DNA of 48,034 nt from Eubacteriales bacterium (lineage in GTDB: Bacteria > Bacillota > Clostridia > Oscillospirales > CAG-272): positions 1 through 48,034 of the forward strand of contig JBGVKV010000007.1 of the NCBI GenBank assembly GCA_045123975.1, written 5' to 3'. A program made the translations under genes and the position numbers. Numbering within the stretch: the stretch's first letter is position 1; every line of letters begins with the position of its first letter. Below, piece after piece: positions 13,849 to 45,064 of this stretch. The notes beneath the pieces are model-generated. The model saw only the letters and a list, made by a program, of their open reading frames with translations. It made no database searches and had not been told where the DNA came from.

Positions 13849-13937
13849 TGGCGCAGAGAGAGGGATTCGAACCCTCGTGAGCTTTCGCCCAAACTGATTT
13901 CGAGTCAGCCCCGTTATGACCACTTCGATATCTCTGC
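13849..13937 (-). tRNA. tRNA-Ser(CGA)
   Basis: GCAGAGA/TCTCTGC acceptor stem, G discriminator and encoded CCA. Anticodon arm CTGA-CT-CGA-AA-TCAG, long variable arm, GGTTCGAATCC T-loop. Confidence 0.95.
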
Positions 13938-32075: not shown

Positions 32076-34862
32076 TTATTTCAGTACGGTAGCAGTGATG
32101 TCCAATCCTTCAAATCGAGGCAGTATAAATTCCAGGTCTTTCTCCGTTGCCTGTGAAAGAATGAGCCGCAGTTTTCCCTCGGCTGTAATGCCGAGAATAT
32201 CGGTAATACGGATTTTTCCGGCAAGCATGACGTCCGCTTCTTCCATGGTATGCCCTCTCAAATCGAACTCCATCAGTATGTAGGAGGACACCTTTTTCTC
32301 AGCAAGCGCGGCAAAATTCCTTGCACATTCTTCAAAGTACTCCGTGTTCATAATGCGGGTATTGCCGATATACTGCTTCTCCGTCAAAGCGGTACTGTAA
32401 TCATACGCCCGGAGCAGCGACATCTGCACCAGATCCCGCAGAATCTTGAACAGATTCACATAATAAAGGGATCTCTGGTCTATGTTCGCGTGCCACAGAA
32501 AAATCATCATTACCAGTTCATTGCCCCGATATACACCGGCAGCATACATGGGATATTCCCCGCTCAGGGAGGTGTTTTTCCATATTCCCCCTTCCTTCAG
32601 CTGCTCAACGACCGGTGCGTACGCATCCATGGAAACGGATCGGGAAGCGATATCAAGAAGGTCTCTCGAGGCAACTTCCAAACGGCCAAAGGGTGTGCCC
32701 GGCTTTACGGAATATACGGTAATGCTTTTATTTTCAAGGATTTCCTCGAAGGTTTCAATGATCCGCAAATACAGCTGCTGGGGTGCAACGGTGTTCAGCC
32801 TTCTCGTAATATCAAAGACTTTGCCAAAGCTGTCTTTGGAGGAAATAATCTGCTTTTTCAGTTCTTTTTTATCCCGCAGTGTATCTTCGTGGATCTCACT
32901 GGTAAAAATCAGTTTGTTTTCCAGAAGTTTATTCTGCTCTTCCAGATATCTGCCGCGATCCTCTTTTTTCAGATTCACGTAGCCGCACAGTCCTCCCACC
33001 AAAAAGAAGAACACGAAAGCGAGCCAGTTGGTAGGCTCATAAAAGATCGTAAGCGGATCGGTACCCGCCATAACACGGGCGATAAAGTAAGAAACACTGC
33101 TGAGTGCGGCCGACGCAATACCGAAGGAGAGACCGTACAGCGTTGCCATAATCACGATGAATATGATACGGAAATCCACGATGGAGAAAATAACCGCGGA
33201 ATCCGTAATGTACATAAAGAATTCGGACAGCAAGAACAGCAGAACGAGTTCAACCGTCTTCAAAAACAGGGAATGAGCGGCTGCCCATTCCTTCAGTTTA
33301 TCAAGGAACGTGACTTTTCTCTCCTGCTTTGTGCTCAGATACAGCGCATACTGGTCCCGCAGATCCTCAAGAATGGATATTTTCGCAAACCATCCGTATT
33401 CGCTTCGCAGCGCGGTATTGACGGCGTTCAGGGATCCGGAAGAATGGGTTTCCGTAAATTCCGTTTTGGCATACTCCGCCAACTCGGTAAGTCTTTCCGC
33501 CAAATCGGCAAACGTGATGTGGAATTCATCTCCCACACTTAAAATACCGCTGCCGCCCTTCCAGTTATCCACAATACGGGCTATCAGATCCGACAGATCT
33601 CCCAGAGAAAGGAAATGCATTTTGGATGTGGAAGCTTCCGGAATCCGTACGGTTTTCTTATTGTACAGATCTTCGAAAACACCGTAAAGAAAATCCTTTT
33701 TATATGTACCGGAATACAGATAGGGTATCTGCACCGTTTTGATATCCAGCCCGTGTTTTTTCGAGTAAAGCTCGCACAGTTTCTCACTCGCTGATGCCAA
33801 TATGGATTTATCGGTCTTTTCCTGCAGCGATGAATCGATGGAGGACAGATACAGAATCTTGACCTTCTTTTGCAGTTCCGAGGCGTATTTCAGAACCTCG
33901 CTCAACTCCTCCGCGTCATTCTGCACCGCAGAACGGAAACGCAGCCCGGCGGAAAAGTACACAATCAGATCAAATCCGTAAGTTTCCAGAATAGCCTTCA
34001 CCGACGGCTTGCGTACACGGAACAACTTGATCTTATCCGCACTGCCAAGCTCCGTGTTGCCAACCACCATAACCTTGCTCTGCGGGAACGTGGTTTCCAC
34101 AAACTCTTTGGTAATATACTCCGTGTTGCCGATCAGCAAAACCCGCTTCAGGCGAATGCTTGTATATTCTTCGACGATGCTTCTGTTTTTCAGCACGTTC
34201 TCGCGGAACGCCACCAGGGAACGATGATTGACCACGCGCATAAGGCACTCAACCAGCACTTCGTCAAACATACCGCACATTCCGCTTGCAATCATCTGCA
34301 GCGCAACGTCCTGAGAAAAAGCGTCCTTATAAGCACGGGAGCTTGTCAGCGCATCGTAGGAGTCCGCAAGTGCCACAACCTGTGCCCAAAGCGGGATCTC
34401 CTCTCCCCGCAGTCCATCGGGATAGCCCGTACCGTCGACTCTCTCGTGGTGATATCTGGCGATTTGCGCTGCATATTCGACAATCTTCCCGTCCACATCA
34501 CCCGGCCGTGCATCGCGAATGATCTTTTCACCGAAGGCGGAGTGTTTTTTTACAATATCGTATTCCAAAGGAGACAAAGTCCCCGGATAGTTCAGAATGC
34601 TTTGCGGAATCTGCATTTTACCGATATCGTGAAGTGACGAAGCAACGGCTATGGCCTCAATATCCGTCTCAGAAAGGCCGCTGTCCGATTTGTACGTGCA
34701 CCACTCGCGCAAAATAAGCTCTGTAAGAATCCTTACGTGGTAAATGTGATAGCCGCTTTCGCCATTCAGAACCGGAGCAATTGCACTCTCTTCAACATAT
34801 TCAATTTTCAATCCGGTCAGCGCATCTTCTATGTAATATACCAAAATCGGACTACCGCGCAT
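32076..34862 (-). CDS. HD-GYP phosphodiesterase fused to Gram-positive-type PelD (degenerate SDR, TM, GAF, degenerate GGDEF)
   Basis: LHDIGK, HHERVDGTGYPDGL, ADSYDALTS.RAYK, then an SDR-like region (RVLLIG...ILYLSS), a TM bundle, QIISSKDSFGKV, a GAF-like region and a C-terminal R-I-T-D (RxxD). SD AAGGAG. Confidence 0.85.
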   Translation of the reverse strand: MRGSPILVYYIEDALTGLKIEYVEESAIAPVLNGESGYHIYHVRILTELILREWCTYKSDSGLSETDIEAIAVASSLHDIGKMQIPQSILNYPGTLSPLEYDIVKKHSAFGEKIIRDARPGDVDGKIVEYAAQIARYHHERVDGTGYPDGLRGEEIPLWAQVVALADSYDALTSSRAYKDAFSQDVALQMIASGMCGMFDEVLVECLMRVVNHRSLVAFRENVLKNRSIVEEYTSIRLKRVLLIGNTEYITKEFVETTFPQSKVMVVGNTELGSADKIKLFRVRKPSVKAILETYGFDLIVYFSAGLRFRSAVQNDAEELSEVLKYASELQKKVKILYLSSIDSSLQEKTDKSILASASEKLCELYSKKHGLDIKTVQIPYLYSGTYKKDFLYGVFEDLYNKKTVRIPEASTSKMHFLSLGDLSDLIARIVDNWKGGSGILSVGDEFHITFADLAERLTELAEYAKTEFTETHSSGSLNAVNTALRSEYGWFAKISILEDLRDQYALYLSTKQERKVTFLDKLKEWAAAHSLFLKTVELVLLFLLSEFFMYITDSAVIFSIVDFRIIFIVIMATLYGLSFGIASAALSSVSYFIARVMAGTDPLTIFYEPTNWLAFVFFFLVGGLCGYVNLKKEDRGRYLEEQNKLLENKLIFTSEIHEDTLRDKKELKKQIISSKDSFGKVFDITRRLNTVAPQQLYLRIIETFEEILENKSITVYSVKPGTPFGRLEVASRDLLDIASRSVSMDAYAPVVEQLKEGGIWKNTSLSGEYPMYAAGVYRGNELVMMIFLWHANIDQRSLYYVNLFKILRDLVQMSLLRAYDYSTALTEKQYIGNTRIMNTEYFEECARNFAALAEKKVSSYILMEFDLRGHTMEEADVMLAGKIRITDILGITAEGKLRLILSQATEKDLEFILPRFEGLDITATVLK

Positions 34863-35222: not shown

Positions 35223-36512
35223 TTAATCAATCTGATTCCGATTCTGTTTGATATTTTTCAGAAGCCTCTCGCTAATCGTCACCCACTGATAGACATACCC
35301 CTCAGACGGAGTTTCTATCAAAATCTCTCCCGTGTCCTTGTATTCCGCAGGAAGATAGGAAATATGACTGTCCCCCCAATCCCATCCAACCGGCACATCG
35401 CCGTCAAAGGTCTGATATGCCCACATCAAACGGACTGGGCTTTTGCTTTGATTAATCCACATATCCGCTGCGCTTCGCAATGTATTCCCGGAACTGAAGC
35501 AGAAGCCGCTCTGATGGAATTCGCTGAGCAGATTGACAATATCGAAAACATAATATGCCGTTCCATCGTACAAATAATTGATGAAATGACCACCGCCTTC
35601 GCCTTCTACAAAGGTCATACCCAACATTCCAACAACATTATAGTCATCCTGAAGCAGATAGGAGGTCAAGCCTGAGCTGGCACCGCAATTTCCTTTGTTC
35701 ACCGCAAAGGTCACCCAAGGGGCGTAGTTGTAGTGCCAATAGATATTTCCACCGCCAATACTGCTATCATACGTTGACAGATCTCCGCTATTCCCTTCAA
35801 ATCCGGAAAGAGCGTAGTAGTACAGGCAGTCCCCCAGCGTCTTGCATGCTGCGGCAACTGTGTCGATGTCCTTACCAACCAGCTGCTCAAACTCTTCTTT
35901 GTTCATGGTAGGCGCCATAGAAGCAGGAATATCATAACTGCTCCAGTTAGCCTGCAGCTGACTCCATGCATACTGGACACGTTCTGTGCGTTGCGCGTCC
36001 TTCAGCTCCTTAATTCGTTCATCGGAAATACGATACCACTCCTCCACATCGGGCGAGACACGGAAAAAGTTGCCGTCCATATCAATGCGCAGTGTTTTTT
36101 CGCCGGCGTTTACAGCCAACAAATGATACATTATGAGATGGCTGTCATCCCGCATATCGGCGCGATGGGGAGGCAGCTTTGACCAATCATCCGCGTGGCC
36201 TTTTACTACCATTTCGTCAAACCCGAACACCGCATTTTCCCGTTGCGAATGCTGCGAAGGGTTCATAATCCGGTAACCGTTTTCAGTAGGAAACAACAAG
36301 CTGTGGTGAACGTTACAGTCCGATTCTCTTCGTACGGTTGCAGCAAGATACTTGATTGTCGGATAATCGTCCGCAAGGAACCATCCCGTTAGGGCTGTAT
36401 AGGTGTCAGGCGCAGTCGCTTCCCGGCGATGAAGGTCAAGCAAAAACTCCACATTCACTTCGAAACCGGAGCTGATACAGTTATAGAAATGTTGTTCAAA
36501 TTGATCCAGGTA
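35223..36512 (-). pseudogene. 5'-truncated transglutaminase-like / cysteine-protease-fold protein
   Basis: GNCGASS...GHFINY..D...YYVFD (Cys-His-Asp order). The frame stays open upstream of the GTG at 36458 (YLDQFEQHFYNCISSGFE) up to TAA at 36515-36513, with no ATG, SD or signal peptide. Confidence 0.55.
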
Positions 36513-36547
36513 TTACCGCACTTCACGGTGCGCTAATGTAAATAAAT

Positions 36548-36700
36548 TGTACGGATCGAAAAGTTGTAAACTGAATAGATCAAGGAAATTCGGTACGAAT
36601 CCGAAACAACCCCCATTTCCGTGTTTGAGTTGTAAGCTCATAAGTCGGAAACCTGTCCGTACATAAAAAGTGAACACATCCTTGGAGAGGAGCGTGTGTT
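36548..36700 (+). ncRNA. Cobalamin riboswitch
   Basis: Closing helix TGTACGGA (36548-55) / TCCGTACA (36656-63). AAGGAAA-TTCGG-tacgaat-CCGAA-ACAACCCCC core, B12-box-like AAGTCGGAAACCTG, and a downstream TCCT-tggag-AGGA hairpin as candidate kissing loop. Upstream of ECF and DUF4430 genes. Confidence 0.85.
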
Positions 36701-36752
36701 CGGAGGCCGCCATACTTGGCGGTACTTTTCCGGCACGCTCTTTTTTGTTTTT
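36690..36752 (+). terminator. Riboswitch expression-platform terminator
   Basis: GAGCGTGT..CGGAG-GCCGCCA-tact-TGGCGGT..TTCCG-GCACGCTC followed by TTTTTTGTTTTT. Competes with GAACAC/GTGTTC pairing. Confidence 0.65.
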
Positions 36753-36834
36753 GCCGGATATTCAGGAAGGAGAAAAAACGCTCTTCTCACTTTAGCATCC
36801 CCAAAAACAAATGAAAAAAGAAAGGAATTGTGTT

Positions 36835-39782
36835 ATGAAAAACGCAATACGAATGACCACAAAAGTGGTTGCAATGCTGATTGCGATTTTGATGGTCGCA
36901 TCTATGCTTCCGTTGTAGCTCTTGCAAGTGAACCGACAGATACAACTGAGTACGTGTATCTCTCCATTAGCTTCGACAAAAATTACATCAATGACAAAAA
37001 CGGATCCCCTATGGTATTCGTTCCCGTGGCTCTTTCGGATATTGCCGCTGTTGACCTTACGGAATACGGTCTTGAGAATATGCTCTACGATGCCGACGGC
37101 GACGGTAAATATGAGATCACCGCGCTCCAGCTTCTTATTTACGCTCACGAGGAGCTGTACGGCGGCGATTGGGGAGACGTAAACTTCGATGCGCTCCCCG
37201 GAAGCTCTTACTTCAAGGGCGGTATATTTGGCTTTACCGAAAATCTTGTGTACTTCCTCAACGGTGATTTCCCCGTGGACGAATCCCAATACAGCGATTA
37301 TATGACGGTTGGTGCAACCTCCGACCGCATTGTTCTGGAAGCGGGTGATTTCCTTGACGTTGCCAGTTTTGAATGCTTTAGCTTCCTTTGGGACCAGCTC
37401 GGCGGCTTCCATTTGTTTGCCGACGAGAACGGCAACTACGTTCGCGATTATACAACAAAAGCGGGCGAAGCTCTTTCCGTTAAGCTGAAGCACTCCTTCT
37501 GCAATCTGATGTTCGGTGAGTCTTGGGTAAAGGATGCTACCGATTTTGAAATCTTCTACGGCTCGGTTTACGGTGAAGCGCTCGGCACGGTGACCACCGA
37601 TGAGGAGGGTAACGCTGAGATCACCTTCGATGCAGCAGGTACATACTACGTTTGGAGTGAGGGCGGCATCGGCTCGGATGACGGAACGCACACGGCTTGC
37701 GATCATTATTCATTGACAGGTGAGCCTTGCGTTGTTTCCTCTCCCGCTTACGCAAGAGTAACGGTTACGGGTGAGCCTGAGCCCGAACCTGAGCCTGATC
37801 CTGAACCGGAACAGACTCGTCAGCCTCAGAATGTCAGCGCTGTGCTGAATGCGACTATGGCTCAGCTGGCTACAACGGTTACCGCACCTTCCTTCGGCAC
37901 GAACGCAGGTGAATGGACGGTATCCAGCCTTGCGCGCGGCGGATATTTTGCAAAGGACAACGCTTACTTCACCGATTACTACAACCGCATCGTAGCAACC
38001 GTCAATGAAATTGCGGCAGAGGTAGACATGAACGGTGCGCTTGACAAGAACAAGTCCACCGAAAACTCCCGTCTGATCGTGGCGCTCTCTGCCATCGGCA
38101 AGGATGCAAGAGCAGTTGGTGATTGGAACTTGGTCGAGGCTTACAGCGCAAACGGCTTGGGCTGGGTCAAAAAGCAGGGTATGAACGGCACGATCTGGAC
38201 GTTGATCGCGTTGGATTCGGGCAACTATGAAACCTCCGATCCCACCATCCGTCAGCAGTGTGTGGATTCCATTTTGGAGGCTCGCCACAATGATGGCGGT
38301 TGGTCTTTGGTAACGGCAAAGTCACAGCCCTCCAACGTGGATATTACCTGCATGACCTTGACTGCACTTTATCCTTATCGCGATCAGGAAGCAGTTGCTA
38401 CCGCTTGCGCGGAAGCGATCGAATGGCTTTCCGCGTCCCAGCTTGCAAGCGGTGGATTCCCTTACGGACAGGGTGAAACCTCTGAAAGCTGCGCATGGGC
38501 AATCGTAGCACTTACCACTTGGGGCATCAATCCCGATACCGATACTCGCTTTATTAAGAACGGTAAGTCCCCGGTTGATAACCTTCTTACCTACTATGTA
38601 GAGGCAGACCGTATGTTTGCACACGCGGGCACAGAATCCAATGCTATGGCGACCGATCAGGCAACTTACGCGCTTGTTGCATACGACCGCTTCATAAACG
38701 GTGAAAAGGCACTCTACGATTATAGTGACGTAACCTTTGAGGCTGTAACTCCCAATGAAAATCCTACCACTCCCGAAACTCCCGACAAACCCGATACTCC
38801 CGTAACTCCTCCCACCACCGAAGGTGTTGGTGCGACTCTCGGACTTCCCGAGAAGGTGGAAAACGTGCCCGGCACAACCTTTAACGTGGTAATCAGCGTG
38901 AACAGTTGGGATAACGATGGCGCGTATAAGCTCCTTGATATGATCGTCAACGTCCCCGAAGGACTTACCGTAAAGAGCGTGGTCGTAAGCAACCGCCTTG
39001 TAGGTGGCACTCTCAGCTATAATCTGAGTGGCGGCAAGCTCCGCATCGTTTACTTTGATGCAAACTCCAATAACGATCTTACCGTGAACGGCGAAAGCTT
39101 CCCGCTGGAGCTTCTCACGATCACGTTCACCGTGGGAGATGTGGAAGCGGATGACATTTTGGCAATTTCGGTAACCGACATGAACCTCAAGCTCACCTCC
39201 GATCCCACCGATGAAAACTCCAAGGTTGAAATTGACACCGAGGATGCAACCGGTAATGTCACCGTAGTGGAAGGAAGAACCTTCAGTGCAGGTGTTCTTT
39301 ACGAGGGTGACGGCGTAGATCTGATCCCTGCCGATAAGAAGGCGGTTGTTGTGACTGTTACCGATCTTGAAGGCGCAAAGAAACTCACCTATAACGACGG
39401 AACAAATACCGCCTTATTCAAGTACAATGCAGAGATCTCCGCAAAGCTCGGCGTTACCGCATACGTAGCACTTGTGGATGCGGACATTGCAACCGAAAAC
39501 TTTGAAAATGCCGACTACTTCACCATCGAAGAAGCAGATGCCGACAGCATTACCTTCGGTGACATCAACGGCGACGGCGTTACAAATGCGCAGGATGCTC
39601 TCGCAGCTGTGGATATGTGGCTCCGCAAGGGCGACGAGCCTACCGGTGACGATATTCTTTCTGCAAACGTAAACGGCGACGGTCGAATTGATACCTACGA
39701 TGCGCTTGCTATCGTAGAGGCCTTTGTTTATGATGACCGTCAGTATGCAATCGTAACCAAAGCAACGACAATTTTTGATTAA
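36835..39782 (+). CDS. Secreted multidomain protein: DUF4430-like N-domain, Ig-like domain, prenyltransferase/squalene-oxidase-repeat alpha/alpha barrel, cohesin-like domain, C-terminal dockerin. Frameshifted at about 36911.
   Basis: SD AAAGGA and ATG at 36835 give the signal peptide MKNAIRMTTKVVAMLIAILMVASMLP, which continues in the -1 frame as VVALA-SEP. Barrel motifs NG.IWTLIALDS, DGGWSL, DIT.M.L.AL.PY, Q..SGGF, SES.AWAIVAL...GI, NAMATDQA.YAL. Dockerin GDINGDGVTNAQDAL...ANVNGDGRIDTYDAL. Confidence 0.8.
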
Positions 39783-39798
39783 GTAAATCCTACAATAC

Positions 39799-39830
39799 GG
39801 TGGGCGGGAGTTGCCTTCTGCCCACCTTTT
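39799..39830 (+). terminator. Internal terminator-like hairpin after the dockerin gene
   Basis: GGTGGGCGGGAG-ttgc-CTTCTGCCCACC-TTTT. Confidence 0.65.
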
Positions 39831-39851
39831 CTGTAAAGAAGGAGAAAAACT

Positions 39852-40472
39852 ATGACAGAGTGGCTGAAACGAAATAAAAAACTATGCTTCATCGTCGGAG
39901 GCGCGGTACTTGTATGCGCCGTCCTTCTTTGCATTTTTCTGATTCCGAAAGACGGTGGAGAACAAGTGGGTGACACACCCACCTTAACGGTGGAAACACC
40001 GCAAAAATTAAGTATATCCGGCACGGATACCTTCGTGCTTGACGTGACGATTTCTTCCTTTGGCGATGCGATCTATCCTGCCGCAAGCATGAGCATTGCA
40101 TTTGATGCCTCCCGCCTGAAATTCCTCGGCGTGGAAGAAGGAAACGTATTTATTAAAAGTGACAATTCCTCGGGGCAGACGCTTCCCGAGTGGAACTATA
40201 ACACCGCCGCTTGCAACGAATCGGGAAAGATCAACGTGATGTATCTCGATATGACGGGTGGCAAAAACGCCTTTTCGAAAGAATTACTCGCAGAAGACAA
40301 CAACGTCGTGCTTCGTCTGAAATTCCGTCTGCGTGGCAGTGTTCGCGCGGGTGACGTTTGCGACCTAATTGTTGAGGATGCCGTATTCGCCGCTTCGAAC
40401 GAAACGCAGAGCCTTGCAATGACAACGAATACATTAACCATTAAAAACGGAAAAATCGTGATAGGAGAATGA
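39852..40472 (+). CDS. Membrane-anchored cohesin-like domain protein
   Basis: Basic N-terminus and a TM helix, then F.LDVTI...AASMSIAFDASRLKF.GVEEG...GKINVMYLD...VLRLKFRL...IKNGKIVI, a cohesin-type beta-strand pattern. Confidence 0.7.
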   Translation: MTEWLKRNKKLCFIVGGAVLVCAVLLCIFLIPKDGGEQVGDTPTLTVETPQKLSISGTDTFVLDVTISSFGDAIYPAASMSIAFDASRLKFLGVEEGNVFIKSDNSSGQTLPEWNYNTAACNESGKINVMYLDMTGGKNAFSKELLAEDNNVVLRLKFRLRGSVRAGDVCDLIVEDAVFAASNETQSLAMTTNTLTIKNGKIVIGE

Positions 40473-41515
40473 AAATGAAACGCTTAATACCCATTTTAAT
40501 CATATTTTCGCTTCTTCTGTCGCTTTGCGCCTGTAATGGCAACTACGCCAAGGTTGACCTTAAAAAGCCCGTTTCCATTCCTGAGGACGGCATCATCGAA
40601 AAAGAAATGCTTTCGCAGATCAAGGACGAAAATGCGATCGCTAACTTTACCGGCAAATCGGGAGAACTCAACTACGAATGGACGATCTTCGGAAGTGACA
40701 TCACCGAGGTGCGTGACGTAAACCTTTCGGTTTCGCTTGAAAAGGTAGAGGACGGCATCAAGGTCGTTTTCAGTGACAATTCCGATTTTGGATTTCCTGC
40801 ACTACTTTCCATCCATCTGAATGAGAAATGGACAGCACTCGGCGCGACTGCATATAAGGAGGATACCGCTGTTTTCTCGGTGTCCATTACTGGAAGCAAA
40901 ACGAGTATCCTCAACATTTCGTTCAATAAAGGCGTGGGAGAATGTGTCATTCGACCGAATGAAAATAAGGACACGTCGAGCGATACGAACCGCCCAAACT
41001 CCGACGGAAGTGCCATTGATCAGGACAAATATCTGACCGATCCCGTACCCGAGGGCAAGCCCCTGCCCGTTGAACCCGAAAATCAAGAGATCAACAAGGG
41101 CAAGGCGTACACTTGCACCTTCTCCATCGAATGCTCGACCATCCTCAACAATCTTGAAAATCTTGATCCCGATAAGCTGGAGCTTGTGCCGTCGGACGGT
41201 GTGATCCTGCCACCCACAACAGTGACCTTCTACGAGGGCGAGTCGGTGTTTGACGTGATCCAGCGAGTATGCAAGGAATATAATATCCATCTTGAATTTT
41301 CGTGGACGCCCATCTATAACAGCGCGTATATCGAGGGCATCCATAACCTATACGAATTTGACTGCGGTGCGCTTTCGGGTTGGATGTACCGTGTGAACGG
41401 TTGGTATCCAAACTACGGATGCTCCCGCTATCAGCTTGCCGACGGCGAGGTGGTTGAGTGGAGATATACCTGCAACGACCTCGGAAAAGACATTGGCTGT
41501 GATTGGATGGGATGA
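40469..41515 (+). CDS. DUF4430 (transcobalamin-like beta domain) lipoprotein
   Basis: Lipobox LCAC. C-terminal GESVFDV, YIEGIHNLYEFDCG..SGWMYRVNG.YPNYGC..Y.L.DG..VEWRYT. Confidence 0.9.
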   Translation: MKMKRLIPILIIFSLLLSLCACNGNYAKVDLKKPVSIPEDGIIEKEMLSQIKDENAIANFTGKSGELNYEWTIFGSDITEVRDVNLSVSLEKVEDGIKVVFSDNSDFGFPALLSIHLNEKWTALGATAYKEDTAVFSVSITGSKTSILNISFNKGVGECVIRPNENKDTSSDTNRPNSDGSAIDQDKYLTDPVPEGKPLPVEPENQEINKGKAYTCTFSIECSTILNNLENLDPDKLELVPSDGVILPPTTVTFYEGESVFDVIQRVCKEYNIHLEFSWTPIYNSAYIEGIHNLYEFDCGALSGWMYRVNGWYPNYGCSRYQLADGEVVEWRYTCNDLGKDIGCDWMG

Positions 41516-42405
41516 TGAAGGATAGCTTTTACAATTACCATCCCACCGTATATCTTTTGTATTTTACGTTGGTGATCACATTTTCGATGCTATTCACGCA
41601 CCCCGTGGCGCAGATCATCGCGCTTGTGTGCGCCATTACTTATGCGGTAAGCGTTGAGGGCAAAAAGGCGGTCGGATTTCTTCTGAAATTCTGCTTGCCG
41701 ATGGTATTGCTCACCGCATTCATCAACCCAGCTTTCAGCCATGAGGGCGTGACCATTTTGTACTATTTCAGTAGCGGAAACCCTTTAACACTTGAAAGCA
41801 TTCTTTACGGTGTGGGAGCAGGCGTCTTGCTTGTGACGGTGCTTTTGTGGTTCTCCGCGTTTTCGCGCGTGATGACCTCGGACAAGTTCATTTATCTGTT
41901 TGGCAGAGTAATTCCCGCACTTTCTCTTGTGCTGAGTATGTCGCTCCGCTTCGTGCCCAAGTTCAAAAAGCAGACCGAGATCGTGGTAGAGGCGCAGAGG
42001 TGCATCGGACGGGATATTTCCACGGGAAGCTTGTGGAAGCGCTTCAAGACCGCCGTCCTCATTCTTTCCATTATGATCACGTGGGCGCTGGAAAACGCCA
42101 TTGAAACGGCTGACAGTATGAAAAGCCGAGGCTATGGGCTGAAAGGCAGAACCGCGTTCTCCATCTACCGTATGGATGACCGCGACAAATATTCTCTGAT
42201 TTGGCTCGGCTTTTGCGGATTGTTTCTTACGGTCGGCGTGATGCTCTCAGCGTTTGGCTTCCGCTATTTTCCAAGCATTCGCTATGCCGCATTTGATATG
42301 ACGACCATACCGTTTTATACAGTTTATTTCGGACTTTGCATCACACCCGTTGTACTAAACTTTACGGAGGAGAGAAAATGGAAAACTATATATTCAAAAC
42401 TCTGA
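41512..42405 (+). CDS. ECF transporter T component (CbrV-like)
   Basis: HP...LYF, LRFVP, AQRCIG and ADSMKSRGYG coupling-helix motifs. Confidence 0.92.
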   Translation: MMKDSFYNYHPTVYLLYFTLVITFSMLFTHPVAQIIALVCAITYAVSVEGKKAVGFLLKFCLPMVLLTAFINPAFSHEGVTILYYFSSGNPLTLESILYGVGAGVLLVTVLLWFSAFSRVMTSDKFIYLFGRVIPALSLVLSMSLRFVPKFKKQTEIVVEAQRCIGRDISTGSLWKRFKTAVLILSIMITWALENAIETADSMKSRGYGLKGRTAFSIYRMDDRDKYSLIWLGFCGLFLTVGVMLSAFGFRYFPSIRYAAFDMTTIPFYTVYFGLCITPVVLNFTEERKWKTIYSKL

Positions 42406-45023
42406 ACTTTTCCTATCCCGAGTGCGAAGAAAAAGCCTTGGATTCTGTCTCCTTCTCGGTCAAGGAGGGTGAATTTCTGATCCTCTGCGGACCGTCGGGT
42501 TGCGGCAAATCCACTCTCCTGCGCCACCTCAAAACCTGCCTTACCCCTCACGGCAGATGGGAGGGAGAGATACTGTACGGTGGCGTATCTCTTGACAAGG
42601 TCGATGACCGAACGCAATCGCAGGAGATCGGCTTCGTCATGCAATCCCCGGAAAATCAAGTGGTGACCGACAAGGTGTGGCACGAGCTTGCCTTTGGTCT
42701 TGAGAGCCTTGGCTACGATACCCCAACCATTCGCCGCCGTGTGGCAGAGGTTGCCGCTTTCTTCGGTATTGAAAATTGGTTCTATAAAGACGTGACCGAG
42801 CTTTCGGGCGGTCAAAAACAGTTGCTTTCTCTTGCCTCTGTGATGGCGATGAACCCGAAGATATTGGTTCTTGACGAGCCGACCTCTCAGCTCGATCCTA
42901 TTGCCGCCTCCGACTTTTTGGCGCTTCTCGGCAAGATCAACCGCGAGCTTGGTATCACGGTCATCCTCACCGAGCATCGCCTGGAGGAAGCATTCCCGTT
43001 TGCCACGCGAGTCATCGTGATGGAAAAAGGACGCATTATTTGCGACGATGCTCCCGAAAAGGTGGGGCTTGCCCTTCGCGATCGGGATAGCGGAATGTTC
43101 CTTGCTATGCCCACAGCTATGCGCGTATGGGCAGGTGTGAAAACCGATCTGCCTTGTCCCTTGACCGTTCGTGACGGCAGTGAATTTCTGACGGCTCGCA
43201 ATCGTGAAATGCCCATCAAAGCCCTTACAGAAAAAGAAATCCACACCTACGGCGATGAGATCGCCATCAGTGCGGACGAGCTTTGGTTTCGATATGAGAA
43301 GGACTTGCCAGACGTGGTCAAGGGTTGCTCGCTCACCTTGCACAAGGGCGAGTTTTACGCCATTCTCGGCGGAAACGGTGCGGGAAAGACCACCACGCTC
43401 AAGTTGATCTCGGGCTTGAAAACACCCTATCGCGGAAGTGTGACCGTCAACGGCCGCATGGGCTTTTTGCCGCAAAATCCGCAATCTCTCTTTGTCAAGC
43501 GCACCGTGCGAGAGGATCTTTACGAGGTTCTGCGCGGTGAGAAATACGGCAAAGAGGAAAAGGACGAGCAGGTCGCCCGCGTGGTAAAGCTCTGTGAACT
43601 GACCGCCTTCCTAGATCGCCACCCCTACGATATTTCGGGCGGTGAGCAGCAGCGCACCGCGCTGGCCAAGGTGCTTTTGACCGCACCCGACGTTCTGCTC
43701 CTGGACGAGCCAACCAAGGGCTTTGATGCGGAGTTCAAGGTCAGCTTTGCCGCAATCCTCTGCAAGCTGACCGCGCAGGGCGTGACCATTCTGATGGTCA
43801 GCCACGACGTGACCTTCTGTGCCGAGTATGCCCACCGATGCGGAATGTTCTTTGACGGACACATCGTAGCCGAGGGTACGCCCGCCGAGTTCTTCTCGGG
43901 GAATAGCTTTTACACCACTCCCGCCAACCGTATGGCAAGGCATCTGATCCCCAAAGCCGTGACGGTTGCTGACGTCATCAGCGCTTGTGGTGGTCGCGTA
44001 GAGGAAGCCGAGGATCCCGACGAGGAGATCGTTCCTTTGCCGAAGCCCGCACCGAGAAGCGTCAACTATAAACCTAAGGCACTTCCCGTATGGAGAAAGC
44101 TGATCGCACTCGCATCTGCTCTTGTGGCTCTTGGGGTATTCCTATATGCCACCTCAATTACCGACCTTTCTGCGATCATCAATTCGTCGGGTATCACGGC
44201 AGAGGGCAAAGAGCAATTATTCCTGTACTTGATTCTGTTTGCCTCTATGTCGATATTCGTTGCCGCCATCGGTCGCAGAAGCGAACCGCCCCTTGTGGTG
44301 CAAACGCCCAAGGAAAAGCGTAATTTGAGTAAGCGAACCATCGTGGCATCGGTGGCGATCCTCTTGCTTATACCGCTGACTATCTTTGCCGGCATCTTCT
44401 ATCTTGAAGATCGCCACTATAATTTGGTTGCGGTTTTGGTACTGCTTGAATGTATGCTGCCGTTTCTGCTCGTGTTTGAGGGAAGAAAGCCCAAGGCGCG
44501 CGAGCTTGTCACCATTGCCGTACTATGCGCCATCGGCATCGCAGGACGTGGACTGTTCTTTATGCTTCCGCAGTTCAAACCGGTACTCGCACTCACCATC
44601 ATCGCAGGCGTTGCCTTTGGTGGCGAGGTCGGATTTTTGGTAGGAGCAATGACCATGCTGACCTCCAATATGATCTTCGGCCAAGGACCGTGGACACCGT
44701 GGCAGATGTTCGCCATGGGCATCATCGGCTTCCTCGCGGGTGTGCTGTTCAAAAAAGGCTGGCTCCGCCGCACGAGAGCATCTCTTGCCGTGTTCGGCGC
44801 ATTTACCGCCGTCATCATTTACGGCGGCATCATGAATCCCGCCGCCGCTATGATGATGTCAAGCGAAACCCTCAAATGGGAAACCATCCTCGCGTGCTAC
44901 GTAACGGGACTCCCCATGGATCTCATCCATGGCTTCGGCACGGTCATTTTCCTTATGATCGCCGCAGAACCGATGCTCGAAAAGATGGATCGGATTAAGG
45001 TGAAGTATGGGATTGCCGATTAA
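42378..45023 (+). CDS. ECF transporter: duplicated ATPase fused to a C-terminal S component (CbrU-CbrT-like)
   Basis: GPSGCGKST / LSGGQ / DEPT / EH and GGNGAGKTT / ISGGE / DEPT / SH. C-terminal ARELV.IAVL.A, PQFKPV, GFLVG, SNMIFGQGPWTPWQM, D..H. SD GGAGG. Confidence 0.9.
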   Translation: MENYIFKTLNFSYPECEEKALDSVSFSVKEGEFLILCGPSGCGKSTLLRHLKTCLTPHGRWEGEILYGGVSLDKVDDRTQSQEIGFVMQSPENQVVTDKVWHELAFGLESLGYDTPTIRRRVAEVAAFFGIENWFYKDVTELSGGQKQLLSLASVMAMNPKILVLDEPTSQLDPIAASDFLALLGKINRELGITVILTEHRLEEAFPFATRVIVMEKGRIICDDAPEKVGLALRDRDSGMFLAMPTAMRVWAGVKTDLPCPLTVRDGSEFLTARNREMPIKALTEKEIHTYGDEIAISADELWFRYEKDLPDVVKGCSLTLHKGEFYAILGGNGAGKTTTLKLISGLKTPYRGSVTVNGRMGFLPQNPQSLFVKRTVREDLYEVLRGEKYGKEEKDEQVARVVKLCELTAFLDRHPYDISGGEQQRTALAKVLLTAPDVLLLDEPTKGFDAEFKVSFAAILCKLTAQGVTILMVSHDVTFCAEYAHRCGMFFDGHIVAEGTPAEFFSGNSFYTTPANRMARHLIPKAVTVADVISACGGRVEEAEDPDEEIVPLPKPAPRSVNYKPKALPVWRKLIALASALVALGVFLYATSITDLSAIINSSGITAEGKEQLFLYLILFASMSIFVAAIGRRSEPPLVVQTPKEKRNLSKRTIVASVAILLLIPLTIFAGIFYLEDRHYNLVAVLVLLECMLPFLLVFEGRKPKARELVTIAVLCAIGIAGRGLFFMLPQFKPVLALTIIAGVAFGGEVGFLVGAMTMLTSNMIFGQGPWTPWQMFAMGIIGFLAGVLFKKGWLRRTRASLAVFGAFTAVIIYGGIMNPAAAMMMSSETLKWETILACYVTGLPMDLIHGFGTVIFLMIAAEPMLEKMDRIKVKYGIAD

Positions 45024-45025
45024 CG

Positions 45026-45064
45026 AAAAAGCGCCTTACGCCCAAGTGGCGCAAGACGCTTTTT
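45026..45064. terminator. Bidirectional terminator
   Basis: AAAAAGCGCCTTACGCC-caagt-GGCGCAAGACGCTTTTT (imperfect) between convergent genes. Confidence 0.7.

Follow-up and report, generated by a model that had tools for sequence, protein, structure and literature searches.

A riboswitch-led operon of gut Clostridia predicted to join transcobalamin-like corrinoid capture, a cohesin-dockerin tether and an ECF importer

A stretch of 48,034 nucleotides from an Eubacteriales bacterium (contig JBGVKV010000007.1, assembly GCA_045123975.1; hereafter the window, whose positions are used throughout) contains a cobalamin riboswitch followed by five plus-strand genes, which were recovered with Pfam, NCBIfam and Rfam and are numbered 1-5 in their order after the riboswitch (Table 1). 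Structural modelling indicates that gene 1, rather than encoding a barrel alone, combines transcobalamin-like beta and alpha folds in permuted order and ends in a cohesin-X-dockerin tail; it is followed by a single membrane-anchored cohesin, a DUF4430 lipoprotein and an energy-coupling factor (ECF) importer related to the cobalamin transporter CbrT. We consider it very likely that the operon is a B12-regulated corrinoid importer. Its new element is a probable, apparently private cohesin-dockerin tether on a predicted B12-capture system; also new here are the hidden beta domain, the portability of the tail, two independent splits of gene 1 and a frameshift polymorphism.

An earlier note, made from the letters of this DNA alone, had described five co-oriented genes behind a B12 riboswitch and no glycoside hydrolase. 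Family matches and the kept gene order bear this out: genes 2-5 abut or overlap one another as read from the sequence, gene 4 overlapping gene 3 by ATGA, and Pfam and NCBIfam scans of the five genes gave no match to any glycoside hydrolase family. The note's assignments of a membrane-anchored cohesin-like protein, a DUF4430 lipoprotein, EcfT and an ATPase-ATPase-S fusion likewise stand, on the matches in Table 1 and on the hydrophobic stretches at the N-termini of genes 2 and 3, the latter followed by Cys22. Its account of gene 1 needs amendment: the barrel, the cohesin-like domain and the dockerin are there, but an N-terminal transcobalamin-beta-like domain had been overlooked, and "secreted" would hold for relatives and for an intact allele but not for this assembly, in which the signal peptide is out of frame.

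Table 1. Features of the operon, in window coordinates
Feature	Position	Strand	Basis
Cobalamin riboswitch aptamer, short variant (139 nt)	36536..36674	+	RF00174 31.5 bits, E 2.6e-6
Predicted attenuator: terminator hairpin and U6 tail	36690..36746	+	fold of leader
Gene 1: signal peptide - SLBB - beta-sandwich - toroid - cohesin-like - X - dockerin; frameshifted here	36835..39782	+	
Signal-peptide frame of gene 1	36835..36918	+	premature TAG 36916-36918
Divergent transcobalamin-beta / DUF4430-like beta-grasp domain (predicted)	36945..37391	+	fold match; no Pfam match
All-beta spacer domain, predicted Ig-like	37440..37775	+	model secondary structure
(alpha/alpha)6 toroid, squalene-cyclase / prenyltransferase / transcobalamin-alpha type	37815..38744	+	fold match
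Internal cohesin-like domain of gene 1	38823..39272	+	PF00963 22 bits, E 1.6e-4, cut-off 24.1
Unnamed mostly-beta X module, always ahead of dockerin	39273..39548	+	model and alignments
Dockerin, two calcium-loop repeats, asymmetric (NAQD / TYD)	39549..39764	+	PF00404 34.3 bits, cut-off 22.9
12-bp GC-rich hairpin between genes 1 and 2	39799..39826	+	fold
Gene 2: single cohesin, uncleaved-looking N-terminal membrane helix (206 aa)	39852..40472	+	PF00963 30.5 bits
Gene 3: predicted lipoprotein, N-terminal beta domain and DUF4430 (41237-41470)	40469..41515	+	PF14478 59.3 bits
Gene 4: EcfT / CbiQ-type transmembrane component	41512..42405	+	PF02361 28.4 bits
Gene 5: ECF ATPase-ATPase-S fusion (881 aa)	42378..45023	+	TIGR04520 329.8 bits, cut-off 315
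CbrT-like S component of gene 5	44490-45020	+	6fnp E 3.1e-7
A-run / hairpin / T-run at operon end	45026..45064	.	read from sequence; stem flagged on minus strand

Gene 1: predicted transcobalamin-like folds and a shared frameshift

The model of the mature gene-1 protein contains six modules (predicted local distance difference test score 87, predicted template modelling score (pTM) 0.42). hhalign was silent on the N-terminal domain; its assignment comes from a fold search instead. Folded alone, this domain reached a pTM of 0.85, and its top five matches among 48,161 chains were the beta domain of haptocorrin (Z 8.3, root-mean-square deviation (rmsd) 2.7, 96 aligned), RUMGNA_00854 (Z 8.1), the bovine and human transcobalamin beta domains (Z 8.0 and 7.7) and intrinsic factor (Z 7.5), with MoaD scoring lower (Z 6.5) than this clade. 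Foldseek also ranked the transcobalamin-beta group first, with weak E-values (best match 3u7z), and in L034, L039 and L040 a Pfam-positive DUF4430 occupies the place of this domain. On the models, it is best classified as a beta-grasp (SLBB) domain of the transcobalamin clade. The spacer that follows shows a weak DUF4198 match in 7 of 19 homologues. The toroid, for which Pfam gives a weak prenyltransferase-toroid match, is closest to squalene-hopene cyclase (Z 23.5) and matches the alpha domains of the transcobalamin family over their full length (Z 17.6-18.6). Class II terpene cyclases carry a DxDD protonation motif; a DxDD[TS] motif occurs in none of 120 homologues. Across 78 homologues the beta domain and the toroid are the best conserved modules of gene 1 (80-81% mean identity versus 52-72% elsewhere). 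Whole-protein Foldseek matches to complement and alpha-2-macroglobulin had an rmsd above 20 and were set aside as a coincidence of toroid and beta-sandwich. The B12-capture role suggested for gene 1 in the earlier note is supported beyond its original basis by this modelled pairing of both transcobalamin folds in one chain, and the gene-1 product probably binds a corrinoid between its beta domain and its toroid.

In the window the start of gene 1 is broken. The ATG at 36835 lies behind a good ribosome site and opens a frame that encodes the signal peptide and stops at codon 28: one base is missing from the C run at 36910-36911, which throws the signal peptide out of frame with the rest of the gene. 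The frame is continuous in relatives, and the N-terminus of every one of the 99 full-length homologues includes a hydrophobic stretch. A 1028-aa open reading frame (ORF) with a GTG start at 36696 was rejected as the true gene 1, because its start falls within the leader and it lacks a hydrophobic stretch (1.45). Among seven public cattle-gut or gut runs, compared on contigs so that within-sample allele mixtures are invisible, four hold the window allele (X1, X3, X4, X12) and three an intact allele with one extra C after 36909 (X2, X9, X10). X1 and X12 are possible sources of the window assembly; X3 and X4 stem from two further studies, and since they contain the identical allele, an assembly error is unlikely and the frameshift is to be regarded as a real, shared allele. 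Gene 1 is likely silent in this strain, with only genes 2-5 made and the lipoprotein and ECF components left as the working core. More broken or truncated frames, which may be assembly errors, are seen in gene 1, the lipoprotein gene or the ATPase-S gene of L036 (7215-9985), L011 (5062-6399), L031, L032 and L038.

In two loci, L021 and L056, gene 1 is replaced by two genes, the first encoding a signal peptide, beta domain, spacer and dockerin and the second a signal peptide, toroid, cohesin, X module and dockerin. The dockerins added to the split-off beta proteins score 40.6 bits and 19.2 bits (the latter below cut-off, E 0.0014). Given that these two dockerins do not align to each other, and that L021 and L056 cluster with different fused relatives (their beta domains being 48% identical), the split must have arisen twice, the beta part gaining a dockerin each time. 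The simplest reading is that the split-off beta protein docks on the internal cohesin, rebuilding the clamp; alternatively, it docks on a housekeeping cohesin. Fused forms retain the internal cohesin as well. A metagenome scan for further splits found none in three short useful loci, six weak dockerin-only loci being left out.

A one-cohesin anchor and a portable tail

The internal cohesin-like domain of gene 1, just below the family cut-off in the window, exceeds it in homologues P0147, P0160 and P0226 and aligns with the anchored cohesin of gene 2 (hhalign E 1.4e-4, 52%). It is the least conserved module of gene 1, at 52% mean identity in 78 homologues; the mean column identity of the anchored cohesin, whose N-terminal helix has a hydrophobicity of 3.04 over 17 residues, is 75%. 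The terminal dockerin is present in all 19 gene-1 homologues examined for it. Elsewhere the toroid and DUF4430 have another C-terminus instead of the dockerin, SLH domains in P0047 and a sortase-type tail in P0073, so that the gene-1 C-terminus behaves as an exchangeable anchor. Conversely, the tail goes with varied cargo: in a census that excluded proteins shorter than 440 aa and four repeat proteins, the X-dockerin tail closes 70 long representative proteins, 56 of them with the internal cohesin, and its cargo is the toroid in 41, DUF4430 only in 4 more and other domains in 25 (DUF2961, phosphoesterases, CHAP, lectin domains and the like). The best evidence that tail and anchored cohesin are a cognate pair comes from L030 (4345-6800), where they travel together despite an unrelated N-terminal cargo, at a site with neither ECF genes nor a riboswitch match. 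From this co-travel, gene order and what is known of the two families, we consider it likely that the X-dockerin binds the gene-2 cohesin.

The genome has three cohesin matches, each on a different protein. One lies at G000:C134:25976-33145 (L041, L046), where a 1842-aa secreted dockerin protein is followed by a 538-aa protein with cohesin and SLH domains, apparently a second, separate anchoring pair; because the gene-2 profile does not match this SLH-linked cohesin, the pairs look private. At G000:C3:3322-9769, on the minus strand, three adjoining secreted repeat proteins each end in a dockerin, with no cohesin beside them. No scaffoldin with several cohesins was found, genes 1 and 2 carrying one cohesin each, and the five genes, to which the glycoside hydrolase scan applied, encode no dockerin-bearing polysaccharide-degrading enzyme; the genome has four other dockerin proteins. 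With one cohesin per anchor, no multi-cohesin scaffoldin and a tail that serves other cargo too, the term "cellulosome-like" of the earlier note is too strong; as its domains are read, the tether is a portable one-cohesin anchor and cohesin-X-dockerin tail, and not a cellulosome.

The hairpin between genes 1 and 2 is likely to be an internal terminator or an mRNA stabiliser. The corresponding intergenic region folds at -16.8 kcal/mol or below in 17 of 22 relatives; the consensus fold is weak (-1.45 kcal/mol) because the alignment is out of register. In cellulolytic clostridia comparable stem-loops lift binding-protein over transporter transcripts, according to the accessible part of PMC9045158.

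Importer, riboswitch and conservation of the gene set

The S component of gene 5 has CbrT (6fnp) as its only significant PDB match, over 169 residues, and the two ATPase domains preceding it supply two sets of Walker A, signature and Walker B motifs. With T component, both ATPases and S component in one operon, the CbrT-type importer of the earlier note is confirmed at the level of homology, as a predicted dedicated (group I) system; CbrT imports cobalamin and cobinamide (PMC5997447, accessible part). The N-terminal domain of the lipoprotein has unnamed best matches in the ESM Atlas (0.87), and PDB sequence searches with the lipoprotein or its alignment returned nothing significant. The genome, which is 89.9% complete, has two proteins with B12-binding domains over the cut-off, one read as methionine synthase, and at this completeness no match to CobS or to a BtuF-type protein. 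A second cobalamin riboswitch (59.7 bits; G000:C54:4228-5433, minus strand, L049) heads a pair of genes, one for a DUF4430 lipoprotein of 131 aa and one for an S-component-like membrane protein of 177 aa without a Pfam match. This pair might use the window operon's ECF module as well. A third, stand-alone DUF4430 lipoprotein of 144 aa lies at G000:C104:2493-2927 (plus strand) with no riboswitch match nearby.

The targeted Rfam search places the window riboswitch exactly at the gathering threshold of RF00174, and a whole-window scan at that threshold did not pick it up; the riboswitch claimed in the earlier note is therefore upheld as a borderline match, with scores of 41-97 bits in relatives. 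Its end is separated from the gene-1 ATG by 160 nt containing the hairpin with U6, a predicted expression platform (attenuator). The region 36640-36845 folds at -67.7 kcal/mol (z -4.46), the hairpin is kept in six of six aligned leaders, and in staged folds its 5' arm can alternatively pair with 36672-36680. An anti-terminator pairing between aptamer and terminator (36600/36699) was discarded, being absent from the minimum-energy folds. No sigma-70 promoter match was found upstream of the riboswitch. Leaders 76-89% identical to that of the window occur in L001, L002, L003, L006 and L020, which share its short riboswitch form of about 140 nt, other loci having a form of 200-220 nt; the pairing of the short variant with differing gene-1 subtypes suggests leader swapping. 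Two cobalamin riboswitch matches precede the operon in L060 (11028-11738, minus strand), in tandem, and in L001 (5642-5776 and 6810-6940), about 1.1 kb apart.

At least 40 GTDB loci have the gene-2 cohesin, nearly all in gut metagenome-assembled genomes from several clostridial families. Among the 40 listed, a dockerin-tailed gene lies directly 5' of the cohesin in 34, the six misses being five contig ends and a deletion in L007, and a DUF4430 gene directly 3' in 34, the misses being five contig ends and L030. The T and ATPase genes are kept in 23 of the 25 listed loci with at least 2.4 kb downstream, and the whole gene set with its riboswitch recurs in five of five further genomes, which may overlap with the 40 loci. 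Given this kept order, the grouping is not due to chance, and the neighbourhood survey shows a gene set conserved together. The riboswitch stands directly 5' of gene 1 in 19 of the 20 listed loci that hold both leader and gene-1 start (14 Rfam matches of 46-97 bits and five short-variant leaders found by BLAST), L036 being the sole miss; L008 has no riboswitch match in 605 nt upstream, and L024 and L029 fall outside the riboswitch scan. The gene set is rare: of 150 genomes surveyed in the family 4 carry it, of 400 in the order 2 do, and the 399 examined from the class hold no close match. Such a patchy spread suggests horizontal transfer. L007 (9500-11683) holds a decayed copy in which gene 1 is gone, the cohesin lacks its membrane helix and the lipoprotein frame continues into the last part of the S component; upstream, a riboswitch-like motif is recognizable by eye.

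The hairpin at the operon's end is likely a two-way terminator shared with a convergent gene. Elsewhere in the window, the minus strand carries a 411-aa ORF divergent from the operon and without a Pfam or NCBIfam match (35223-36458), a 928-aa protein that joins an HD-GYP-like domain to a membrane sensor-like region through an epimerase-like middle part (32076-34862), and a tRNA gene of 54 bits (13852-13937).

Proposed mechanism, alternatives and known systems

We propose that at low B12 transcription would run past the attenuator into the operon, and that from an intact gene 1 a secreted beta-grasp and toroid protein would be made that clamps the corrinoid as transcobalamin does. Its C-terminal dockerin would bind the single membrane-anchored cohesin of gene 2, holding the capture protein on the cell, and the hairpin behind gene 1 could yield more capture protein than anchor and transporter. 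The captured corrinoid would then reach the fused S component, the DUF4430 lipoprotein being the probable intermediary, with EcfT and the two ATPases driving its import. The internal cohesin is likely an adaptor that takes up a second subunit with a dockerin. In this scheme we infer the ligand binding, the dockerin-cohesin pairing, the hand-over route and the stoichiometry; the entire chain, from riboswitch-run capture and tether through lipoprotein hand-over to CbrT-type import, we favor with some reserve. The splits of L021 and L056, with their newly gained dockerins, amount to a natural experiment for a two-tier assembly. Tentatively, then, and as a conjecture, gut Clostridia might possess a "cobalosome" in which the X-dockerin fixes the toroid protein to the membrane cohesin, the internal cohesin recruits a dockerin-bearing beta subunit (or a further toroid protein), the resulting clamp feeds the CbrT importer and a shared one-base allele switches capture off in part of the population.

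Several observations weigh against the capture scheme. Gene 1 is frameshifted in four of the seven runs and lost in L007, and the genome's second riboswitch-led pair of DUF4430 and S-component-like genes has no tether; the tethered protein is on these grounds non-essential. The window riboswitch, besides being barely at threshold, deviates from the consensus. Within gene 1, the beta-domain Z of about 8 is borderline and its best Foldseek E is 0.13, hhalign detected no link to the DUF4430 of the operon itself (0.6%), and the single-chain model, at its low pTM, leaves the packing of the domains unfixed. The toroid is nearer to squalene-hopene cyclase than to transcobalamin, its identity is unfixed by fold alone because epimerases and glycoside hydrolases tie with transcobalamin, and PF01122 gives no match. 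Among solved cohesins, none matches the sequence of the anchored cohesin significantly (best E 0.76). Finally, in the nearest counterpart studied in cells, heme uptake was what changed (10.1101/864751, accessible part).

The same dispensability could mean that the importer works through lipoprotein and S component alone, genes 1 and 2 being a B12-regulated surface display for adhesion, storage or decoy; the frameshift allele, the loss in L007, the untethered second pair and the unrelated cargo borne by the tail in 25 of 70 long homologues would all fit. Yet genes 1 and 2 stay with the ECF genes in the 23 of 25 informative listed loci and the five genomes, the cargo here is transcobalamin-like and L007 has lost most of its ECF genes too, so we hold such a display to be unlikely. 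The affinities of the toroid raise the further prospect of an enzyme or stripping factor that, for example, frees corrinoids from carriers or alters them before import: cyclases, epimerases and hydrolases head its structural matches, it has many invariant polar residues and toroid-only forms occur naturally. Against this stand the missing DxDD motif, the lack of a glycoside hydrolase family match and its fusion to, or place beside, a transcobalamin-beta domain, kept adjacent even in the split forms, which make an enzyme improbable.

The joint occurrence of cohesin and dockerin on a single chain, seen in 56 of the 70 tailed proteins, the kinship of internal and anchored cohesins and the excess of gene-1 product that the hairpin would give could also be accommodated if the dockerin bound the internal cohesin of another gene-1 molecule, the anchor nucleating chains of capture protein. 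However, the internal cohesin is poorly conserved relative to the anchored one, and the split forms supply a different dockerin as its possible partner; we regard chain formation as quite improbable. Least credible to us is heme or another tetrapyrrole as the ligand, as for lsa1836-1840 of Lactobacillus sakei, which has the same alpha, beta and ECF parts and the deletion of which cut heme uptake (10.1101/864751); a cobalamin riboswitch is present in 24 of the 25 loci informative on this point, the S component matches CbrT, and the accessible part of that report holds neither a cobalamin test nor a mention of a riboswitch.

Corrinoid capture by a tethered transcobalamin-like protein, the reading we prefer, has relatives on several sides. 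Foldseek gave matches at E ~2e-7 to 3kcp and 4fl4, which we take to be scaffoldin C-terminal cohesin-X-dockerin segments bound to an anchoring cohesin. The tail resembles the C-terminus of a cellulosome scaffoldin in its cohesin-X-dockerin order and its cell-anchored partner, but differs in having one cohesin per chain, a membrane helix instead of SLH or sortase anchoring, no glycoside hydrolases and B12 regulation. Animal transcobalamin, haptocorrin and intrinsic factor (2bb6, 4kkj, 2pmv) share both folds predicted for gene 1, in which, however, the beta domain comes first, a spacer lies between, identity is 7-16% and PF01122 is unmatched.

Bacterial surface proteins with transcobalamin-like SLBB and toroid domains were predicted to be B12 scavengers by Burroughs et al. 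(2007; PMC1796856, accessible part here and below), with SLBB-toroid fusions in either order, Ig spacers, a signal peptide, a second SLBB paralogue in the operon, genes for a CbiO-like ATPase and a CbiQ-like protein, and hosts without B12 synthesis. Their tethers are Gram-positive anchor motifs and sugar-binding domains, in contrast to the dedicated cohesin-dockerin pair described here, neither "dockerin" nor "cohesin" occurring in the main text of that paper, and the present SLBB domain has diverged beyond the reach of Pfam. ECF-CbrT of Lactobacillus delbrueckii (6FNP; PMC5997447) has a homologous S component with ECF T and ATPases, but its module is shared among S components, whereas that of the window is dedicated, with the S component fused to both ATPases and the surface binders co-encoded. 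The five-gene alpha/beta/ECF operon of L. sakei, the deletion of which lowered heme uptake, likewise has an S component, an ATPase pair, a T component and extracellular transcobalamin-beta-like and alpha-like proteins; there the alpha and beta proteins are separate, no cohesin or dockerin is described in the accessible part of the report, and the likeness is one of parts list. The earlier note's remark that no characterized system of this type was known hence needs qualification: the capture and ECF core had been predicted (PMC1796856) and studied genetically for heme (10.1101/864751), but the tether is unpublished as far as searched. In the full-text literature, with most subscription papers outside it, we found nothing joining cohesin or dockerin to a cobalamin riboswitch, vitamin B12 or transcobalamin; PMC6487960 does not mention B12, and no binding test of a bacterial transcobalamin-like protein was found in the literature searched.

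The operon thereby offers a riboswitch-marked, single-chain beta+alpha candidate for extracellular B12 capture by Gram-positive gut anaerobes, a natural on/off pair of gene-1 alleles in cattle-gut populations, and a divergent cohesin-X-dockerin pair that would be a portable surface-display tag outside polysaccharide degradation and may supply an orthogonal pair for designer scaffolds. If the proposed scheme is true, cohesin-dockerin biology would extend to vitamin scavenging, and the finding would bear on the bacterial origin of the animal B12 carriers and on the competition for corrinoids in the ruminant gut.

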